Made by a program: the position numbers and the translations under genes
Notes under the pieces: generated by a model
Told to the model about the DNA's origin: nothing
What the model saw: only the letters and a program-made list of their open reading frames with translations
The model's database searches: none
Shown here: one piece after another, positions 2,828 to 11,785 of the stretch
How the letters are laid out: the number at the start of each line of letters is the position of its first letter
How positions within the stretch are numbered: the first letter of the stretch is position 1
Virus record (IMG/VR): IMGVR_UViG_2585427739_000006
Direction: 5' to 3' (one strand)
DNA from: a virus
Taxonomy: Duplodnaviria; Heunggongvirae; Uroviricota; Caudoviricetes
Length of the DNA stretch: 11,861 nt

Positions 2828-2920
2828 TTTGTTTTAACCTCATGACAGATTTAAGGATGAACAAATCCCTGCCATTGCTGGCATATAAGAATGAAACCGG
2901 ATATTTATTACGGAACTGTT

Positions 2921-3112
2921 TTAAAGACCTGCCGGGATTTCGATATTATCCTGGTGAATAACTTTATCGACCGGGTAACAGTTACCGGGAATTTTCTGTT
3001 CGGTTGCTGCAGTCATACACTCCTGCATTGTCCTGTGAACACTGACTGCAATATCAACTGGCTCTCCGGAAACAAGAAAAACTGTCAGAACAAGCGCAAA
3101 TGCTGAATTCAT
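2921..3112 (-). CDS. ydfD: YdfD-like small membrane/lysis protein (63 aa) with N-terminal hydrophobic segment
   Basis: ATG at 3112 with AAGGA 8 nt upstream; protein MNSAFALVLTVFLVSGEPVD... matches my recollection of Qin YdfD. Its start overlaps the dicB stop in an ATGA arrangement. The ORF-track start at 3166 lacks a ribosome-binding site. Confidence 0.6.
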   Translation of the reverse strand: MNSAFALVLTVFLVSGEPVDIAVSVHRTMQECMTAATEQKIPGNCYPVDKVIHQDNIEIPAGL

Positions 3113-3297
3113 TGTGCACATCCTTTTGGCATCAGACGTAAACGAGCCAGCATTGAAACAATGCATATTTTATTTAATAGCTCCCGTTCTTGTTTTCTCT
3201 TGTTAATGGCATCTTCAGTAAATACAGGGTTACTGATAGTGACACCAATTTCAAAACAACCTTCAGACGTATTAACGTTTGGTAATAACGTTTTCAT
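3109..3297 (-). CDS. dicB: DicB cell-division inhibitor (62 aa)
   Basis: ATG at 3297 with GAGGA 7 nt upstream; translation MKTLLPNVNTSEGCFEIGVTISNPVFTEDAINKRKQERELLNKICIVSMLARLRLMPKGCAQ matches E. coli K-12 DicB as I recall it. The longer 97-aa ORF-track version has no ribosome-binding site. Confidence 0.75.
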   Translation of the reverse strand: MKTLLPNVNTSEGCFEIGVTISNPVFTEDAINKRKQERELLNKICIVSMLARLRLMPKGCAQ

Positions 3298-3466
3298 TAT
3301 CGCGTCCTCAACAATGAATTTTGTGATGCAGTGCCTGGTGCCTCCAGGTGACGTTAACCAGTTAACAATTAACGCCGGATACAGAGAATCCACCCATAAC
3401 ACTGTTTTTGGTTTTAACTGTTCCGCGTGCGCTTAGCCGCATTCACCGCATCACAAAATTCACTTT

Positions 3467-3524
3467 AAAAACGGCGGCAGAGCAGTCACGGAGTAAAACT
3501 GATACCGCCAAACGTCACCAGAAA
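3467..3524 (-). ncRNA. dicF: DicF small RNA (ftsZ-targeting sRNA of the dicB operon), 53 nt plus 3' U-run
   Basis: Minus-strand sequence TTTCTGGTGACGTTTGGCGGTATCAGTTTTACTCCGTGACTGCTCTGCCGCCG followed by TTTTT. This agrees at 52 of 53 positions with the K-12 DicF sequence as I remember it, and it lies immediately upstream of dicB as in Qin. Confidence 0.75.
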
Positions 3525-3643
3525 ATTGATAACAGAGGGCGTTGCAGCGGGGTTGTCACTTAAGCGTATGGTCAACCTGACAACTCGGTGTCCTCAACGG
3601 GGAAGAAATACCCCCGCCATACTTACCGCCGCGCCATTTCGCG

Positions 3644-3720
3644 GGTTGCCACAACCGGAAGCGCACGGTCGAATTAAATTTAACGACACCGTACAGTGAG
3701 ACGAACTTCGCCGTGCGCTT
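3644..3720 (-). promoter_or_regulatory. Structured untranslated leader upstream of dicF: 10-bp perfect inverted repeat with nested palindromes (candidate RNA processing or regulatory structure)
   Basis: AAGCGCACGG (3659..3668) pairs with CCGTGCGCTT (3711..3720) around a 42-nt loop that itself contains GTCG/CGAC flanking the palindrome TTAAATTTAA (3674..3683). A small GGTTG/CAACC hairpin lies at 3644..3656. No convincing ORF in 3525..3799 on the minus strand. Confidence 0.3.
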
Positions 3721-3799
3721 TCGTGTTGTGTGCCTGCTTTTAACCACGTCAGGCGAGGTGGTATCCTTCTTATTCCGAATAACCAAGAAGGAAATCTAT

Positions 3800-4000
3800 A
3801 TGACTAAAGAAGAATTTGTCTCTTATATTTTTGATAAAACGGTTGAAATGTATGCCGCTACTTACGGGTCCTGTAATCCTCTGAATAAACCAGAGGGGAA
3901 AGATGATTTCGACAAAATTTACCGCTTCTTGGAGGACCGCTATATCAAAAGGTTAGAGGACGCAGGGATCAAATCCCCAGTGAAGTCACCATTGTCCTGA
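3800..4000 (+). CDS. Hypothetical protein, 66 aa, AT-rich gene antisense to the leftward operon
   Basis: ATG at 3800 preceded by AAGGA with a 7-nt spacer; first 100 bp are about 37% GC. No recognisable motif. Its 3' end overlaps the convergent 121-aa gene by 32 bp. Confidence 0.45.
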   Translation: MTKEEFVSYIFDKTVEMYAATYGSCNPLNKPEGKDDFDKIYRFLEDRYIKRLEDAGIKSPVKSPLS

Positions 4001-4334
4001 GAACTTGCAGGACGTCATGATCGTAACTTCCATCCAAACCGCGACGGCAAATTGCTTCTCGTATTACCGGAAGCAGTTCGCTGGAAATCTCGGTGCATAT
4101 TTCACCTGCTAATACGCCTGGCTCAAGTGAGAATATTGGTGAACTTACGGTCTTGGTCTCGACAGTTTCAGAGTCAGTGCCAACATTATAAAGCTCAACG
4201 AAAGCGGTCTTGATTTTCCGGGCCAGATCTTTTGCTGGCTCGCTTGCAATATCTTTCCCGATTTCTCGCAGCACAGAATGCAATGTATGAGCTGCTGTTT
4301 TCTGTACATCAGACGGTAAATCTTTAAATTCCAT
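3969..4334 (-). CDS. Hypothetical protein, 121 aa, at the position where a cI/DicA-type repressor would be expected
   Basis: ATG at 4334 with GAGG 6 nt upstream (the ORF-track start at 4346 has none). No obvious helix-turn-helix. Divergent from the rightward operon across a 212-bp intergenic region. Confidence 0.5.
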   Translation of the reverse strand: MEFKDLPSDVQKTAAHTLHSVLREIGKDIASEPAKDLARKIKTAFVELYNVGTDSETVETKTVSSPIFSLEPGVLAGEICTEISSELLPVIREAICRRGLDGSYDHDVLQVLRTMVTSLGI

Positions 4335-4546
4335 CGTCAGCCTCATCAGTCAGTGTTTCTGGCTAACCAGCAACGCGCGCCAGATTCGGTTTTAAACGTT
4401 TTGCTTTTGGTATATGTCATCGCGGTGAACGTACCGTCCTGGTTGGGGAACACGCCACATACAGGAGGCATCTGGCGGCGAGCTTCTGTATGATCCCAAG
4501 GTTTATGACGAATATCGTAAGACGAAGCGGGCGGGGCGGTTGAACA

Positions 4547-5068
4547 ATGAAAATCACTCCTGAACAGGCTCGTGAGGCTCTGGATGCCTGGATATGTCGA
4601 CCAGGAATGACACAGGAGCAGGCGACGATATTAATCACTGAAGCATTCTGGGCTTTGAAAGAGCGCCCGAACATCGATGTTCAGCGTGTCACAGATGAAG
4701 GTGGCGCGGTTGATCAGCGAGCGCTTGGCGTTAATCGAGTGAAGATATTCGAACGCTGGAAGGCTATCGACACTAGGGATAAGCGTGAAAAGTTCACGGC
4801 GCTAGTGCCTGCAATTATGGAGGCTATCCGGATTAATGATTTCAGGTTGTATCGTGAAATTAGTGACGGAAAAAGCATCACGTACATGATCGCCGGGTTA
4901 AACAAAGAATATGGCGATGTGGTGGAGTCCGGACTGCTTTTTGCTGATCCTGCCGTAGTGGATCGTGAAACTGACGAACTTATAGAAAAAGCAATTGCTT
5001 TCAAACTTGCGTATCGACAGCAATACCAACAAAAAGCTGGATGGAATTATGAGCCTTCTTTTTGCTGA
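4547..5068 (+). CDS. YdaT-like protein (173 aa), possible CII-analogous regulator; first gene of the rightward operon
   Basis: ATG at 4547 directly after an in-frame TGA. The segment ...RWKAIDTRDKREKFTALVPAIMEAIR... resembles what I recall of the Rac/CP-933P YdaT family. Assignment is from memory and tentative. Confidence 0.55.
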   Translation: MKITPEQAREALDAWICRPGMTQEQATILITEAFWALKERPNIDVQRVTDEGGAVDQRALGVNRVKIFERWKAIDTRDKREKFTALVPAIMEAIRINDFRLYREISDGKSITYMIAGLNKEYGDVVESGLLFADPAVVDRETDELIEKAIAFKLAYRQQYQQKAGWNYEPSFC

Positions 5069-6014
5069 ACGCCCACTGGTTATAAACACACAGCTTGCGA
5101 TGAAGATTGGCTTAAATGAAGCCATTGTGTTGCAGCAGTTGCATTACTGGTTGAGAGATACCAATTCCGGCATGGAATGTGATGGTGTTCGCTGGATTTA
5201 CAACACAACGGAACAATGGCTGGAACAGTTCCCATTCTGGTCAGAGTCAACGTTAAAGCGCGCGTTTGCAAGTCTGAAAACGCTGGGGCTTTTGCGTTGT
5301 GAAAAGCTCAATAAATCAAAGCGCGATATGACCAATTTCTACACGATCAACTATGGGAACGAGCTTTTAGATGGTGGCAAATTGAACGAATCCATCGGTT
5401 CAAAATGCGCCGCTCCATCAGGTCAAAATGACACGATGGAAGAGGTCAAAATGAAACGCTCCATTGGTTCAAAACGACCCAATGTCATCGGGTCAAAATG
5501 GCCTGATGATCTTACAGAGAATACAACAGAGATTACTACAGAGAATAAAAACACTTTTCGTCCGGAAGCTTCGCAACCGGACCCGCAGACCGCTGAACAG
5601 GATTTTTTAATCCGGAACCCCGACGCGGTTGTGTTTAGTGCGAAAAAACGCCAGTGGGGTAGCAGGGAGGATTTGGCGTGTGCGCAGTGGATTTGGGGGC
5701 GGATCGTGAACCTTTACGAACAGACTGCCAGCGACGATGGAGAGATCATGCGACCAAAAGAGCCTAACTGGACAGCCTGGGCCAATGACGTGCGCACAAT
5801 GCGGATGCTGGATGGCAGAAGCCACAGACAAATTTGCGAAATGTTTGGTCGGGTACAGCGAGATCCATTCTGGGTAAAAAACATCATGAGCCCGTCAAAA
5901 CTCCGCGAAAAATGGGACGAACTGGTCATCCGCTTGGGACGTTCACCTGTACAGCGTTGTGTGAATCATATTTCTGAACCGGATACAGAAATTCCGCCTG
6001 GTTTCAGGGGATAA
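5049..6014 (+). CDS. Replication initiator, lambda O-like (origin-binding), about 321 aa
   Basis: Long ORF containing the iteron array in its middle, as in lambda O, where ori lies inside the gene. Start is uncertain: ATG 5049 has a weak ribosome-binding site; TTG 4995 and ATG 5100 are alternatives. Overlaps the upstream gene by 20 nt. Confidence 0.7.
   Translation: MSLLFAERPLVINTQLAMKIGLNEAIVLQQLHYWLRDTNSGMECDGVRWIYNTTEQWLEQFPFWSESTLKRAFASLKTLGLLRCEKLNKSKRDMTNFYTINYGNELLDGGKLNESIGSKCAAPSGQNDTMEEVKMKRSIGSKRPNVIGSKWPDDLTENTTEITTENKNTFRPEASQPDPQTAEQDFLIRNPDAVVFSAKKRQWGSREDLACAQWIWGRIVNLYEQTASDDGEIMRPKEPNWTAWANDVRTMRMLDGRSHRQICEMFGRVQRDPFWVKNIMSPSKLREKWDELVIRLGRSPVQRCVNHISEPDTEIPPGFRG
5392..5501. 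repeat. Origin iterons: five direct repeats at 23-24 bp spacing
   Basis: TCCATCGGTTCAAAATG (5392..5408), TCCATCAGGTCAAAATG (5415..5431), AGAGGTCAAAATG (5442..5454), TCCATTGGTTCAAAACG (5461..5477), TCATCGGGTCAAAATG (5486..5501). Core GGT(T)CAAAA(T/C)G ends at 5408, 5431, 5454, 5477 and 5501. Confidence 0.78.
5515..5550. repeat. AT-rich block of three 12-bp direct repeats adjacent to the iterons (candidate DNA-unwinding element of ori)
   Basis: ACAGAGAATACA / ACAGAGATTACT / ACAGAGAATAAA in tandem, immediately after the iteron array. Mirrors the iteron-plus-AT-rich layout of lambdoid origins. Confidence 0.55.
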
Positions 6015-6054
6015 GTGTTGATTTCAGGTCATGAGGTAATTTTAAGGAGGACTT

Positions 6055-6453
6055 GTGGCAAAAGTTTTTACACAGGAAGAGCGGGAAAAAATTAAAGAGC
6101 AGGTGGTCGAACTTGTGCGCCAGAGCGGTCGCGAGACATTACGACAGTTGGAAGCTAAAACAGGTGCGACAAGATATCTGATGAGCATTCTTGCCAGAGA
6201 GCTGGTTGCCAGTGGTTATGTATACAACTCCGGCTACGGGTTATTCCCGTCTGAACAGGCACGAAAGGACTGGCAAAATGCCCGCAAAAAACTCTCTAGG
6301 GCGAAGGTGAAGAAACCCGCTGTGGTTGATCCGGACCTTATCTGGTCACTACCTGATGGAGAAATACGTCGCTACGACAGTCGTCTAAACATAATCTGTC
6401 GCGAGTGCCGGAAGAGCGAAGTTATGCAGCGCATACTGGCATTTTATCAGTGA
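6055..6453 (+). CDS. Hypothetical protein, 132 aa, possibly a winged-helix DNA-binding protein
   Basis: GTG start at 6055 with AAGGAGG at 6044..6050 (short 4-nt spacer). The segment ETLRQLEAKTGATRYLMSILARELVASGYV looks helix-turn-helix-like. No family recognised. Confidence 0.55.
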   Translation: MAKVFTQEEREKIKEQVVELVRQSGRETLRQLEAKTGATRYLMSILARELVASGYVYNSGYGLFPSEQARKDWQNARKKLSRAKVKKPAVVDPDLIWSLPDGEIRRYDSRLNIICRECRKSEVMQRILAFYQ

Positions 6454-6545
6454 AATTTTCGTTATTTATAGACGTAACTAGATTAAAGAGCATTAGTTCA
6501 GATGTGAATTGACATTTTCACGGCACAGGATTGAGCTAGCGTGGT

Positions 6546-6571
6546 TGTCTGCTTTGCGTCAAAAGCAGATA
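6546..6571. other. Hairpin in the 181-bp intergenic region, with a nearby consensus -35 hexamer
   Basis: TCTGCTTT (6548..6555) pairs with AAAGCAGA (6562..6569) around a 6-nt loop, with no U-tract after it. TTGACA lies at 6509..6514 but no good -10 follows at 16-18 bp. Confidence 0.3.
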
Positions 6572-6634
6572 TTACCAGATTTAGACATCTATTCCCGATA
6601 GCCCTGCTCTGATGCCACACTCTGTGCTATTTTC

Positions 6635-7096
6635 ATGACCCCAATAAAAATATTTATGACTATTGCTGATTTCAAACGGCCTAAATTGGAGCTCCCAAAC
6701 GGGGCAAACAAACTACTACTGCACTCTTGCTGTGCTCCATGTTCCGGTGAAGTGATGGAGGCGCTTCAGGCCTCGGGAATCGACTATACCATCTTTTTCT
6801 ACAACCCGAACATTCATCCTCAGAAAGAGTATTTAATTCGTAAGGATGAGAATATTCGCTTTGCTGAACAACACGGCGTGCCATTTATTGATGCTGATTA
6901 CGACACAGACAACTGGTTTGAACGTGCCAAAGGAATGGAATGGGAACCCGAGAGGGGGATCCGTTGTACCATGTGTTTTGACATGCGTTTTGAGCGGACA
7001 GCGCTGTACGCTGCTGAAAATGGTTTCAGTGTGATCAGCAGTTCACTGGGCATTTCACGCTGGAAAAATATGCAGCAGGTTACCGTCACTGGATAA
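6635..7096 (+). CDS. QueH/DUF208-like protein (153 aa), possibly C-terminally truncated
   Basis: Contains [20 protein letters not shown] and [11 protein letters not shown], which match the signature motifs I associate with the DUF208/QueH family. It is shorter than typical QueH and ends at a TAA that is in frame with the next gene. No ribosome-binding site at either candidate ATG (6635, 6656). Confidence 0.5.
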
Positions 7097-7171
7097 TCTC
7101 AGTCAGATTGCCTTACTCCGAACGCCCACCGCGTCCGTCCCGTACATTCCAGCAACGCATCTGGAGGTAAC

Positions 7172-8771: not shown

Positions 8772-9296
8772 TTATTGTTTAACCCATAATAGTTCATTGA
8801 CATTGAATCCCAACTTTTGAGCGGTACGCACATAGTCTGCTTTTACATTATCTGGAATAGTTTGGGTCCTTGCCAGAATCCATAGGTATTCTCTGTTCGG
8901 ACCACTGACAAGAGCATACTTATACTCATCATCCAGTTTGATTACATTATAGCCACCATAGAAGGGGCCAAAAAACGAAACTTTCAACGCTGCAGTTTTA
9001 GTATCTCCAGTAAAGTATGCTTTACCTTCGCTCTCGCTCCATTTGTTTTTCGTTGGATCGTATCCACGGTTAAGTACGCGAATCCCTCCGTCGTTCCGTT
9101 TTTCATAAGTAGCGCTGACCTGTTCCAGACCACGTTCGAACCAGTTCTCGAGGCGAGCTATTTCATACCATTTTCCGAGGTAGCGGTTGGCGTCAAAATT
9201 TGTAATCGGCTGCACACCTTTAGGTGGTGTCGGGGCCTTACATGCTATAAGAGTGAAAGAGAGTGCAATGCCAGTCAACACAGGCCATAACTTCAT
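8772..9296 (-). CDS. blc: Bacterial lipocalin Blc-family outer-membrane lipoprotein (174 aa), diverged from E. coli chromosomal Blc
   Basis: Signal peptide with lipobox LIAC (Cys19). Conserved lipocalin segments NFDANRYLGKWYEIAR, GKAYFTG, ALKVSFFGPFYGGYNVI and YLWILART. AGGA 8 nt upstream of the ATG at 9296. Confidence 0.88.
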   Translation of the reverse strand: MKLWPVLTGIALSFTLIACKAPTPPKGVQPITNFDANRYLGKWYEIARLENWFERGLEQVSATYEKRNDGGIRVLNRGYDPTKNKWSESEGKAYFTGDTKTAALKVSFFGPFYGGYNVIKLDDEYKYALVSGPNREYLWILARTQTIPDNVKADYVRTAQKLGFNVNELLWVKQ

Positions 9297-9356: not shown

Positions 9357-10970
9357 TTATTTATTAGTGAGTACTACGTTCCATGGCAGGAGTTCGTCAA
9401 CTCGGTTGGAAGGCCATTCCGGCAGTACGCTCAGGATATGGCGCAGATACGCTTCCGGATCGATACCATTCAACCGGCAGGTGCCGATCAGCCCGTACAA
9501 CAGTGCACCACGCTCGCCGCCGTGATCGCTACCGAAGAACACGTAATTTTTCTTTCCGAGACAGACTGCACGAAGCGCTCTTTCCGCTGTGTTATTGTCC
9601 GCCTCCGCCAGACCGTCATCACAGAAGTTGCACAACGCAACCCAGTGCTTCCTGATATACCGGAACGCATCTCTCAGACGGCATTTTTTCGATAACGTGT
9701 GTTCTTTCTCCTGCATCAGCTTATACAGGGAAGTCAGTAGCGGTTTACTCTGCATTTGCCTGACCGCCAGGCGTTCAGACACCGGCAACCCGCGTATTTC
9801 GTGCTCAATGGCGTACAGTTCGCCGATTAGTTTCAGTGCTTCTTCCGCCGTCGCGCTTTTGGTACTGATATATACATCGTGGATTTTGCGCCGCGCATGA
9901 GCCCAGCATCCTGCTTCCGTCAACGCGCCGCCTTCACGTTCGGCACTGAACAGCCGATCGTAACCTGCGAACGCATCTGCCTGCAGGATACCCCGGAAGG
10001 GACGAAGGTGTTGCTCCGGATGTTTACCCTGATGGTCCGGTGAGTAGGCGAACCAGACCGCCGGAGGTTCTGGCGAACCGGCATTTCGGTCATCCCGGAC
10101 ATACGTCCAGATATATCCTGTTTTCGCCTTCTTCCTGCCCGGTGCCAGTACTTTTACTGGTGTGTCATCAGTGTGAACCTTGCGGGTGTTCATCACATAA
10201 CTGTACAGGGCATCATTCAGCGGCGTCATTAACTGGCAGCACGCATCAACCCAGTTGGAGAGTAAGGCACGGCTCAGTTCGACACCCTGGCGGGCAAAGA
10301 TTTCACTCTGACGATACAGTGGCAGGTGTTCGCAGTATTTTCCCGTTAACACGCGGGCAAGTAACCCCGGGCCCGCGATACCACGCTCTATCGGACGGGA
10401 TGGTGCCGGTGCTTCAACGATGCAGTCACATTTTGTACAGGCTTTTTTTACCCGTTCTGTGCGGATCACTTTCAGGGCGCTGCTCACCAGTTCCAGTTGT
10501 TCTGCGCTGACTTCCCCCAGATAATCCAGCTCACCGCCACACTCCGGGCAACAGCTTTCTTCAGGCTCCAGGCGGTATATTTCACGGGGGAGATGTGCCG
10601 GTAACGGACGACGATGGCGCGACTGTCGCAACTGGCGGGGAACCAGCGGGTCATCCTCACGCCCACTGTAACGATCGCTTTCCTGCTCGCGTTGTTTCAG
10701 CAGGGCTTCAGCCTGTTCAACCTCACGACGCAGTTTTTCAGAACGGGTTCCGAACAGCATCCGGCGCAGTTTTTCTATCTGAGCCCGCAGATGCTCTATT
10801 TCCCGTTCATCTTCTTCGATCTTTTCTTCGGCACGTGCCAGTGCAGAGCGCAGGAAGGCCTCCGTCTCTTCAACCAGACTCAGTTGCTGGTCTTTCTGAC
10901 GGAGGGCTTCAGCCTGCTCAGAGAGCAGCCTTTCCAGCTCAGCGATGCGAATGAGGTATTTCTGACTCAT
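9357..10970 (-). CDS. IS66-family transposase TnpC (537 aa)
   Basis: Long ORF with a coiled-coil/leucine-zipper-like N-terminus, a CxxC...CxxC zinc-finger region (CCPECGG...CTKCDC) and an acidic catalytic core, as in IS66 TnpC. Confidence 0.9.
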   Translation of the reverse strand: MSQKYLIRIAELERLLSEQAEALRQKDQQLSLVEETEAFLRSALARAEEKIEEDEREIEHLRAQIEKLRRMLFGTRSEKLRREVEQAEALLKQREQESDRYSGREDDPLVPRQLRQSRHRRPLPAHLPREIYRLEPEESCCPECGGELDYLGEVSAEQLELVSSALKVIRTERVKKACTKCDCIVEAPAPSRPIERGIAGPGLLARVLTGKYCEHLPLYRQSEIFARQGVELSRALLSNWVDACCQLMTPLNDALYSYVMNTRKVHTDDTPVKVLAPGRKKAKTGYIWTYVRDDRNAGSPEPPAVWFAYSPDHQGKHPEQHLRPFRGILQADAFAGYDRLFSAEREGGALTEAGCWAHARRKIHDVYISTKSATAEEALKLIGELYAIEHEIRGLPVSERLAVRQMQSKPLLTSLYKLMQEKEHTLSKKCRLRDAFRYIRKHWVALCNFCDDGLAEADNNTAERALRAVCLGKKNYVFFGSDHGGERGALLYGLIGTCRLNGIDPEAYLRHILSVLPEWPSNRVDELLPWNVVLTNK

Positions 10971-11000
10971 GGCCGTTTTTATAATGCGGTCAGGAGTTTT

Positions 11001-11351
11001 TTACAACATTGTCAGTGCGTTAAGGCGGGATGTTTTTGGCTGACGCCAGTCCAGCTTATCGAGGAGCATTGCCAGTTGCGAGCGGGTAATGGATATCTTA
11101 CCGTCACGCACCGCAGGCCAGATAAACTGACCTTCCTCAAGGCGTTTGGTGAACAGGCACAGACCATCAGCATCAGCCCACAGGATTTTAATCGTGTCTC
11201 CCCGTCGGCCACGGAAGATAAACAGGTGACCGGAGAAGGGGTTATCATCCAGCACATGCTGTATCTGCTCCCCCAGACCGTTGAAGGATTTACGCATATC
11301 AGTAACGCCGGCAACGAGCCAGATACGGGTACCTGATGGGAGTGAAATCAT
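11001..11351 (-). CDS. IS66-family accessory protein TnpB (Orf2, 116 aa)
   Basis: 116-aa ORF whose ATG (11351) overlaps the tnpA stop as ATGA. The sequence MISLPSGTRIWLVAGVTDMRKSFNGL... is typical of IS66 Orf2. Confidence 0.88.
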   Translation of the reverse strand: MISLPSGTRIWLVAGVTDMRKSFNGLGEQIQHVLDDNPFSGHLFIFRGRRGDTIKILWADADGLCLFTKRLEEGQFIWPAVRDGKISITRSQLAMLLDKLDWRQPKTSRLNALTML

Positions 11352-11785
11352 CGTCCCCTCCCGGTCAGCTCACGGATCAACACCGTGAGCAGCTCTGGTG
11401 AAGGATTTTCCAGCATCATTTTACCGTAATGGAATTCCACATGGCAGGAAGCTGCACAAGCACCTGATAATGCCTCCGGAGCAGGAGCATCTGTAGCACA
11501 GCGCGGGGTGTCGATAAGTTCCACTGGAACCAGAGTCGGAGAGGCCGGAAAAGATTGTGATACTGTAGGGCCTACAATAGTTGGAGGCATTCTACGAGAA
11601 ATACGTCCTTCTCTTTGCCAGAGGCGTAGCCATTTAAAAATCAGGTTGTTATCAACGCCATGTTCCCGGGCCAGTTGTGCAACATTGGCATTTGGTTTCG
11701 AAGCCAGTTCAACCATATGAAGTTTAAATTCATTAGAAAATATCCGGCGGGTTCCGGAGCGCCAGTCTGTAGGTTTATCCATCAA
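11348..11785 (-). CDS. IS66-family TnpA (Orf1, 145 aa), helix-turn-helix protein
   Basis: First ORF of the IS66 operon, starting 76 bp from the window edge; N-terminal helix-turn-helix-like region. Confidence 0.85.
   Translation of the reverse strand: MMDKPTDWRSGTRRIFSNEFKLHMVELASKPNANVAQLAREHGVDNNLIFKWLRLWQREGRISRRMPPTIVGPTVSQSFPASPTLVPVELIDTPRCATDAPAPEALSGACAASCHVEFHYGKMMLENPSPELLTVLIRELTGRGR

Follow-up and report, generated by a model that had tools for sequence, protein, structure and literature searches.

Lambdoid replication modules usually pair an O-like initiator with a helicase loader of the P or DnaC type, and the question raised by the stretch of viral DNA analysed here (IMG/VR record IMGVR_UViG_2585427739_000006, 11,861 nucleotides, the whole of which is referred to as the window) is how such a module might work when the initiator is followed directly by a gene for a small protein of 132 amino acids (aa). 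A preliminary description of this locus had taken that protein to be unknown and had suggested that the module is either incomplete or makes use of an unconventional partner. The reading favoured here, with a probability of roughly 0.65 for its parts taken jointly, is that the 132-aa gene belongs to the Ren/DUF977 family and is unremarkable within it, that the absence of a loader is by design and a common native variant in an initiator family found both with a neighbouring DnaC-like gene and without one, and that the initiator probably uses the loader of the host through a DnaT-like C-terminal tail. The features on which this reading turns are the following, with nt standing for nucleotides and bp for base pairs.

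5049-6014, + strand: O-like replication initiator, 321 aa (phrog_391 'replication initiation O-like', 1.9e-92)
5377-5508: five iteron-like repeats at 23-24 bp spacing within the initiator gene, putative origin
5949-6011, + strand: DnaT-like C-terminal tail VQRCVNHISEPDTEIPPGFRG, initiator residues 301-321 (phmmer against PDB)
6015-6054: 40-nt spacer with the Shine-Dalgarno sequence of the 132-aa gene; the slot of the DnaC-like loader gene in relatives
6055-6453, + strand: Ren-family protein (DUF977/LygF), 132 aa (PF06163, phrog_142, hhalign to lambda Ren, structure model)

A Ren-family gene after the initiator

The open reading frame (ORF) reported directly after the initiator is present at 6055-6453 on the + strand. 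It begins with GTG, relatives having an ATG at the matching position, and a strong Shine-Dalgarno sequence, AAGGAGG, lies at 6044-6050, 4 nt ahead of this start. The label "unknown" has to be withdrawn for its product, which is a member of the Ren/DUF977 family (PF06163, PHROG 142). Residues 1-132 align with positions 1-130 of the 134 in PF06163 (DUF977) at 94.3 bits (cutoff 22.1; E value 8.6e-27), and when membership of the PHROG profiles was tested the protein matched phrog_142, "Ren-like exclusion protein", at 8.3e-44, with lambda Ren itself matching the same profile at 1.6e-41. Direct comparison with lambda Ren gave 50% identity over the C-terminal 20 aa (BLASTP, E 2e-6), while a profile built from 14 diverse DUF977 proteins aligned with Ren residues 16-93 at 94% probability (hhalign, E 1.5e-7). 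An identical protein is held in RefSeq as WP_032298920.1, 'DUF977 family protein', and at the level of sequence the identity of the protein was thus already known. The family is small, 1.84 billion proteins yielding 96 clusters of it at 50% identity. Phage records name DUF977 proteins LygF, a name that carries no function; a literature search on LygF function found nothing, DUF977 came up in one paper only and a paper on the Stx replication region makes no mention of the genes at issue here.

The helix-turn-helix-like segment noted in the preliminary description is borne out by an AlphaFold2 model, which predicts a winged helix at residues 7-64, made up of helices 7-24, 29-36 and 40-53 and a beta hairpin at 57-64. 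The mean predicted local distance difference test score (pLDDT) of the model is 76.8, with block means of ~90 over residues 10-80. DUF977 had already been placed in the winged-helix fold by Kinch et al. 2009 (PMC2686095), and a Foldseek search with the model returned generic MarR/GntR/IclR-type winged helices only (best E 0.015). A multiple alignment of DUF977 and Ren proteins makes clear that both are built in the same way, with a winged helix at the N-terminus and, at the C-terminus, a peptide of the form N-x-(I/V)-(C/F)-x-E-C-R-x-S-x-x-M-x-R-(V/I)-L-A-x-Y, with invariant columns at N112, E117, C118, R119, S121, M124 and R126. In DUF977 proteins these two parts are separated by an additional helix and a basic linker that is disordered, the layout in the 132-aa protein being winged helix 7-64, helix 67-85, disordered linker and conserved motif 112-131.

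DUF1627 proteins ('YdaW family' in phage records) are often encoded between the loader and DUF977. They begin with winged-helix domains and one of them matched PHROG 142 weakly (5e-5, residues 84-133; L005 3223-3981, which is Rac-SA53; also L088, L090 and L091), for which reasons they may be distant paralogues. A second weak match to lambda Ren (tblastn, 41.5% over 53 aa, E ~7e-7) was found just downstream of the antiterminator Q in HannyBb-type relatives (L007 37447-37584, L002 11680-11817); in HannyBb it overlaps short hypothetical ORFs only, and the equivalent region is absent from the window.

The position of Ren-family genes in known modules is as follows.

Lambda: O, P, ren, then terminator tR2
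Rac-SA53: YdaU, P-like gene, DUF1627, DUF977
vB_EcoS-683R6, phiSTEC1589-Stx1c and Shigella phage 75/02 Stx: O, DnaC-like gene, DUF1627, DUF977
mEp460_ev081, HannyBb, Tritos and the window: solo initiator, DUF977

Among sampled viral contigs Ren came after a lambda-P-like gene in 77/77 loci and DUF977 was found no more than 1.3 kilobases (kb) after a DnaC-like gene in 39/48 loci. Irrespective of loader type, the replication operon normally closes with a Ren-family gene, and the idea that the protein is an unconventional partner replacing the loader was not upheld: since Ren-family proteins accompany bona fide loaders of both the DnaC-like and the P type, with which they are not mutually exclusive, they are not loader substitutes. 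Searches for a loader identity (Pfam, PHROG, NCBIfam, PADLOC, PDB by sequence, Foldseek) returned only DUF977/Ren-like and generic winged-helix matches. No match to a loader family, whether lambda P (PF06992) or DnaC/IstB-like AAA+ (PF01695), was obtained (Pfam gave DUF977 only, PHROG gave Ren-like and 'DNA binding protein') and no P-loop or AAA+ Walker motif was found in the sequence. That the 132-aa protein loads the helicase in place of P or DnaC is therefore considered very improbable, even though its gene fills the slot right after the initiator and a Ren-family gene is kept in all types of module. Two-hybrid contacts of the Rex proteins with O and Ren were reported by Thomason et al. (bioRxiv 2021.04.19.439022), who also regard lambda ren as likely involved in replication, and this would favour such a role; the co-occurrence with both loaders, the lack of AAA+ or P-family similarity and a fold consisting of a generic winged helix and a short peptide all speak against it.

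By analogy with lambda Ren, the 132-aa protein would be an accessory protein, neither a helicase loader nor needed for initiation. Toothman and Herskowitz are said to have found, in 1980, that ren mutants become sensitive to Rex exclusion and that ren is not required for replication, a dispensability that would also count against a loading role. The preliminary description had allowed that the protein might turn out to be a common nin-region protein, with the initiator recruiting the host helicase directly; the first part fits, as the gene holds the ren position at the start of a nin-like region, while the second enters below as a proposal only.

The loader slot and the tail of the initiator

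A comparison of 80 IMG/VR loci with initiators 92-99% identical to that of the window confirmed that a loader gene belongs in the slot after the initiator, as 20/80, with initiators 92-95% identical, carry a DnaC/IstB-like gene there. This gene encodes 248 aa (PF01695 IstB_IS21, 2.6e-18), starts ~10 nt after the initiator stop and is followed by DUF977 or DUF1627. In 55/80 loci the start of DUF977 lies 44-133 nt beyond the point where the initiator match ends, and the exact junction of the window (40-nt spacer; 44 nt past the match end) was found in 52 of these 55 solo loci. A P-like gene occupied the slot in 0/80. No loader was detected in the window by tblastn with three DnaC-like queries, lambda P and the Rac P-like protein, and a loader hidden elsewhere was rejected, since neither the window nor the HannyBb genome, searched in full, gave a DnaC-like or P-like tblastn match. 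The 45-kb HannyBb record, deposited as complete, has structural and lysis genes and is without loader-like sequence throughout. The solo arrangement is also found in mEp460_ev081 (deposited as a phage genome) and Tritos, the mEp460_ev081 and HannyBb records each having the early region from dicB to Q in common with the window, and a second, Tritos-like type of initiator is solo in 24 loci. The missing loader is not put down to decay of the copy in the window, the loader-less form being a common native variant (55/80, including records deposited as phage genomes). In its common form the module would work without a phage loader.

It could be argued instead that the loader-less state is decay, the DnaC-like gene having been deleted and the solo module being a non-functional relic spread with defective prophages. 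Against this stand an identical junction gap in 52/80, the majority form, and its occurrence in two records deposited as phage genomes, one of them (HannyBb) labelled complete with structural and lysis genes; the Tritos-like initiator is solo as well, and in the window the initiator ORF, the iterons and the tail are all intact. The DnaC-like gene does lie exactly in the slot in a quarter of the relatives (20/80), the 3' flank of the spacer (GAGGTAATTTTAAGGAGG) resembles the terminal part of the DnaC-like gene (GAAGTAATTTCAGGAGG), the initiator stop is flanked by a 17-nt direct repeat and the prophage in the window is degraded elsewhere, and these points keep decay in contention as an improbable explanation. 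The solo-form spacer retains the Shine-Dalgarno region that is found after the DnaC-like gene in the other form.

The 17-nt repeat is imperfect (5999-6015, TGGTTTCAGGGGATAAG; 6019-6035, TGATTTCAGGTCATGAG) and straddles the initiator stop and the spacer at the loader slot. It may be the trace of an event in which the loader gene was gained or lost.

The initiator is related to lambda O over part of its length only, residues 147-294 aligning with lambda O 135-270 at 34% identity (BLASTP, E 7e-28), and its N-terminal half is unlike lambda O. Neither PF04492 Phage_rep_O nor any other Pfam domain was found in it even at E up to 10, lambda O as a control matching PF04492 at 5.7e-36. Rac YdaU was considered as a relative and rejected, there being no significant BLASTP similarity. 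The iterons have a GGTCAAAATG-type core and are followed by an A+T-rich stretch with repeated ACAGAGAAT (window 5377-5550); from the sequence, the two together are likely to be the origin, in a layout like that of ori-lambda inside O.

At the C-terminus, residues 301-321 match E. coli DnaT 159-179 with 15/21 identical, no other part of DnaT being matched (phmmer, PDB), and the NCBIfam DnaT equivalog is matched at positions 160-179, the tail having the form ...VSEPDxxIPPGFRG. The initiators of the near-identical modules all end in this tail. That an O-derived protein can carry a C-terminal motif of DnaT had been noted by Brezellec et al. (PMC5509034). The three-helix DNA-binding domain of DnaT (PF17948) was not detected in the initiator; it was found in Rac-SA53 YdaU at 1.6e-18. 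The IPPGFRG-type tail also ends Tritos/Stx-type, 683R6-type and some YdaU-type initiators, giving four initiator body types, and P-partnered lambda O ends ...DLTNTDWIYGVDL while P-partnered Rac-SA53 YdaU ends ...DCTDWRDD. The association of tail and loader was surveyed in loci L088-L091, L092-L211 and L212-L291, with counts among the matches listed. The gene after viral ORFs ending in IPPGFRG (at least 116 with usable downstream sequence) was DnaC-like in 56, a non-loader in 60 (48 DUF977, 1 DUF1627, 11 other or none) and P-like in 0. Where the following gene was lambda-P-like, the initiator had a DLTNTDWIYGVDL/TDW-type tail in 79/79 scorable cases among the matches listed.

The tail would be the loader-type-specific part of the initiator and would engage a DnaC-type loader, either the phage's own or that of the host, docking host DnaB-DnaC (or the restart primosome) onto the initiator once this is bound to the iterons. 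DnaT, which is encoded directly upstream of dnaC, links PriA-PriB to DnaB-DnaC as an adaptor. If the tail docks host DnaB-DnaC, a phage-encoded DnaC paralogue becomes optional for that reason, and the loader-less initiator probably borrows the host loader. The same tail could also act by recruiting PriA, not DnaC or DnaB directly, with loading by way of PriA-PriB-DnaT-DnaC. In preprimosome structures the C-terminal domain of DnaT docks on PriA via a hydrophobic interface (PMC13377028) and the tail is the only DnaT-like part of the initiator, but the same paper is silent on whether residues 159-179 belong to that interface, and the tail tracks the type of the neighbouring loader, DnaC-like and never P-like. 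Because of this tracking, contact between the tail and a DnaC-type loader is the simpler account, and the PriA route is judged unlikely.

A wider proposal, made tentatively and itself rather doubtful, is that the SEPDxEIPPGFRG tail works as a transferable peptide on which DnaC-type loaders (DnaB-DnaC) dock, common to DnaT and at least four unrelated initiator scaffolds, and makes a phage's own loader dispensable; secondarily, Ren-family proteins, always encoded between the replication genes and a defence slot, may be self-immunity factors that shield phage replication from abortive-infection systems of the phage or of a resident prophage. If true, the tail reading would pinpoint the part of DnaT that recruits DnaB-DnaC in replication restart, a recruitment still described as unknown (PMC4132743; PMC13377028). 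That the C-terminus of the initiator sorts with the type of loader (PPGFRG with DnaC-type or none, TDW with P-type) offers a cheap testable handle on DnaB-DnaC recruitment.

A number of points weigh against reading the locus as a native module that uses the host loader and carries an ordinary Ren-family gene. Lambda O binds P through the half to which this initiator is homologous, yet there is no P here. The association counts, made among the matches listed, are not phylogenetically independent, the E. coli prophages behind them being close relatives of one another. The 2026 preprimosome paper (PMC13377028) favours the N-terminal domain of DnaT for recruitment of DnaB-DnaC and places the C-terminal domain on PriA. 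The function of Ren is itself poorly defined, ren being only 'likely involved in DNA replication' according to Thomason et al. (bioRxiv 2021.04.19.439022), and no experiments on DUF977 were found in the literature. Finally, for the hairpin in the spacer downstream of the 132-aa gene, covariation is no better than in shuffles, 143/500 of which reach the observed score.

The downstream spacer and a variable cargo slot

The second part of the preliminary description concerned the region after the 132-aa gene, where the following features are found.

6454-6634: mosaic spacer; 6454-~6570 common to mEp460/Tritos/Evi-type phages, 6532 onward common to HannyBb-type phages
6509-6514, + strand: TTGACA hexamer, a chance-level match and not a promoter
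6541-6570, + strand: conserved ~30-nt element GTGGTTGTCYGCTTTGYRYCAARAGCRGAY with an 8-bp hairpin, left border of a variable cargo/defence slot
6656-7093, + strand: truncated QueH (DUF208) pseudogene, the slot cargo in the window (PF02677 positions 1-126 of 175; RefSeq 'missing C-terminus')

A 181-bp spacer with TTGACA and an 8-bp-stem hairpin does exist, at 6454-6634 up to the first ATG of the next ORF; with the RefSeq start of the QueH pseudogene at 6656 it becomes 202 bp. Its sequence tracts mark it as a recombination mosaic, and in HannyBb-type phages the tract from 6532 onward comes after a truncated methyltransferase gene. The role of TTGACA as a promoter element fails, as the hexamer occurs at a chance level (4 copies in the window against 8.7 expected) and no acceptable -10 lies 16-18 nt from it. 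A promoter scan of the + strand gave no site, and the spacing is not conserved, mEp460_ev081 having a 7-bp insertion after TTGACA. The hairpin, TCTGCTTT-GCGTCA-AAAGCAGA at 6548-6569, has a perfect 8-bp stem, such as arises in 49/5000 dinucleotide shuffles of the 181-bp spacer (~1%). No terminator was called at 6548-6569, where 3 of the pairs in the stem are G-C and ATATTACCAG comes next, and no T-run follows the hairpin in 15 variants, so that an intrinsic terminator or analogue of lambda tR2, with which it was compared, was ruled out. A known RNA family was likewise rejected, with no Rfam match in 6454-6634 at E up to 1. As to a structured RNA, fold z-scores were -1.99 for the whole spacer, only slightly better than shuffles, and -1.46 in a second case, with covariation at the level of shuffles. 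Among the hairpin variants 91% of cells are paired and one pair alone shows double changes, the single compensatory change from T-A to C-G being offset by hybrid mismatches.

These results bear on the possibility that the spacer is a moron-type unit in which TTGACA belongs to a sigma-70 promoter for QueH and the hairpin is an insulating terminator. TTGACA at 6509 and the hairpin at 6548-6569 do both lie upstream of QueH, and in lambda the corresponding position, 25 nt beyond ren, is taken by the intrinsic terminator tR2. Set against this are the missing -10, the lack of a + strand promoter call or of a terminator call at the hairpin, the absence of a T-run and an order that is wrong for such a unit, the putative -35 being upstream of the hairpin; moreover, the TTGACA region is absent in HannyBb-type relatives that have an intact QueH. 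A moron is accordingly given very little weight. Only slightly more is given to the 132-aa protein as a DNA-binding regulator that would have the palindrome 95 nt downstream as its operator and control read-through into the cargo slot. Its predicted winged-helix fold would suit this, as would an 8-bp inverted repeat with a 6-nt spacer near the gene and with sharp borders in 29 loci; but many DUF977 genes are without the element (Rac-SA53 and L031 among them, the element being present in 29 of ~90 loci searched), lambda Ren is followed by terminator tR2 instead and there is no covariation signal.

The ~30-nt element is neither a promoter, a terminator nor a demonstrable RNA structure, any role of the hairpin being one that we infer. 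In the 29 loci with the element at least 10 unrelated sequences begin right after the 3' arm, and because the sequence switches among unrelated cargo at this point the element is a conserved boundary. An att-like repeat flanking the cargo was ruled out by the presence of one copy per locus, with no second flanking copy. The element was found in 1551/5426 complete E. coli genomes, intergenic among the matches listed, and the median of one copy per genome excludes a dispersed repeat of the REP (repetitive extragenic palindromic) type. RefSeq has a truncated methyltransferase pseudogene ending ~20 nt into the element; a coding remnant of the methyltransferase is nevertheless considered improbable, as a hand translation of HannyBb, judged against a methyltransferase motif, would put the end of real homology at the 5' edge of the element.

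PADLOC models were matched by 8/14 of the cargo proteins tested.

L031: dCTP deaminase, 7.9e-169
mEp460_ev081: PD-T7-1, 4e-157
Tritos and L063: PDC-S15, about 1e-98
vB_EcoS-683R6: IetA, 8.9e-143, with an S8 peptidase adjoining
L013: PDC-S33, 5.3e-119
L043: PDC-S39, 2.9e-102
L032: NsnA-like, 9.5e-28
Slot coordinates: window 6541-7171; L003 4837-6186 (-); L089 4161-5495 (-); L088 4126-5280; L031 4663-6300

Judged by these model matches, the cargo after the element is often anti-phage defence and the slot is a hotspot in relatives. The 30-nt left border could serve to mine lambdoid prophages for new defence systems.

The prophage and its likeness to known systems

What the window holds is a defective lambdoid prophage of E. 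coli, of the Qin type. About 2.7 kb surrounding the 132-aa gene are 100% identical to E. coli chromosomes, and in strain NT1F25 the matching region lies inside a prophage adjoining rspAB/ynfA, the Qin site. The annotated order in that strain and the remaining features of the early region in the window are given below.

NT1F25, first part: integrase, excisionase, 823-aa exonuclease, ydfD, dicB, cro/dicC-like regulator remnant
NT1F25, second part: YdaT/CII-like gene, "phage O protein family" gene, DUF977 family protein
NT1F25, third part: truncated QueH, DUF968/HNH protein, antiterminator Q, lipocalin
4460-4563, + strand: 3' remnant of a cro/dicC-like gene, right edge of an 838-bp deletion (RefSeq 'transcriptional regulator, missing N-terminus')
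4547-5068, + strand: YdaT/CII-like protein, first intact gene of the rightward operon (PF06254 YdaT_toxin 1.2e-5, phrog_163 CII-like 2.3e-40)

The rightward early operon runs from the CII/YdaT-like gene through the O-like initiator with its internal iterons to the Ren-family gene. Compared with Escherichia phage mEp460_ev081 the window is without 838 bp, the junction lying at window 4460-4462 (blastn; window 2895-4462 corresponds to L003 1-1568 and window 4460-6569 to L003 2406-4522, L003 being mEp460_ev081). This deletion takes out the repressor, the divergent oR/pR operator/promoter region and the 5' part of the cro/dicC-like gene, as a result of which the prophage is defective and its rightward operon has no native promoter; the defect is independent of the question of the loader. 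A further ~1.7 kb is absent between QueH and the DUF968 gene relative to HannyBb, where the homology tracts overlap by 13 bp at 7081-7093. The QueH 3' end, a hok/mok locus, rem and one small ORF are removed by this deletion, which leaves pseudogene fragments at 6656-7093 and 7078-7170.

Elsewhere in the window Rfam identified DicF small RNA (3472-3523, - strand, 72.5 bits, E 9e-15) with a sub-threshold STnc100 match adjoining it (3265-3474, - strand, 34.5 bits against a gathering score of 47). An IS1 InsB fragment at 2-268 takes the place of the excisionase found in NT1F25, and downstream of the Q gene are a Blc-like lipocalin gene (8772-9296, - strand) and a complete IS66-type unit with three ORFs (9357-11785, - strand), the IS1 and IS66 sequences lying at the two ends of the window. 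The window therefore stems from another strain than the record that matches it best.

The outcome is in the main negative, with no new loader, promoter or terminator, and an annotated DUF977/Ren-like gene in a degraded Qin-type prophage is a routine finding; further work would perhaps be worthwhile only on the association of tail with loader and on the defence hotspot.

The closest parallel for the hotspot is found in P2 and P4 prophages, in which a fixed slot with conserved flanks holds varied anti-phage systems (Rousset et al. 2022, PMC9122126). The slot seen here is likewise fixed and holds varied defence systems in otherwise similar prophages, but its place is directly behind the ren-like gene of a lambdoid early operon, and it is marked on the left by a 30-nt hairpin element, and in the window itself it holds the truncated QueH only.

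For the 132-aa protein the parallels are Pfam DUF977 ('LygF' in phage and Salmonella Sdf-region annotations), to which it is a full-length match, and lambda Ren (96 aa, encoded between P and ninB), with which it has in common membership of PHROG 142, the winged helix, the C-terminal motif and the position as last gene of the replication operon ahead of a nin-like region. It differs from the common 140-141-aa form of DUF977 in being a 132-aa C-terminal variant ending ...ILAFYQ, common to mEp460-type phages. In comparison with lambda Ren it is 36 aa longer, with the extra helix and disordered basic linker at residues 67-111, and has C115 where Ren has F; lambda Ren also falls below the Pfam DUF977 model. 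Lambda ren comes after P and is followed by tR2, whereas the gene in the window comes after the initiator and is followed by a hairpin that is not a terminator.

The module as a whole resembles the lambda O-P module in having iterons inside the initiator gene, in the C-terminal half of the initiator and in an operon context of cro-like, CII-like, initiator and ren-like genes. It differs in being without P, in an N-terminal DNA-binding half unrelated to PF04492 and in the DnaT-like C-terminus (PPGFRG) that stands in place of DLTNTDWIYGVDL. With E. coli DnaT the initiator has the tail alone in common, PF17948 being undetected and no DnaC homologue adjoining the copy in the window. In those relatives where a DnaC homologue does follow the tail-bearing gene, however, the arrangement mirrors the order of dnaT and dnaC on the E. 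coli chromosome.

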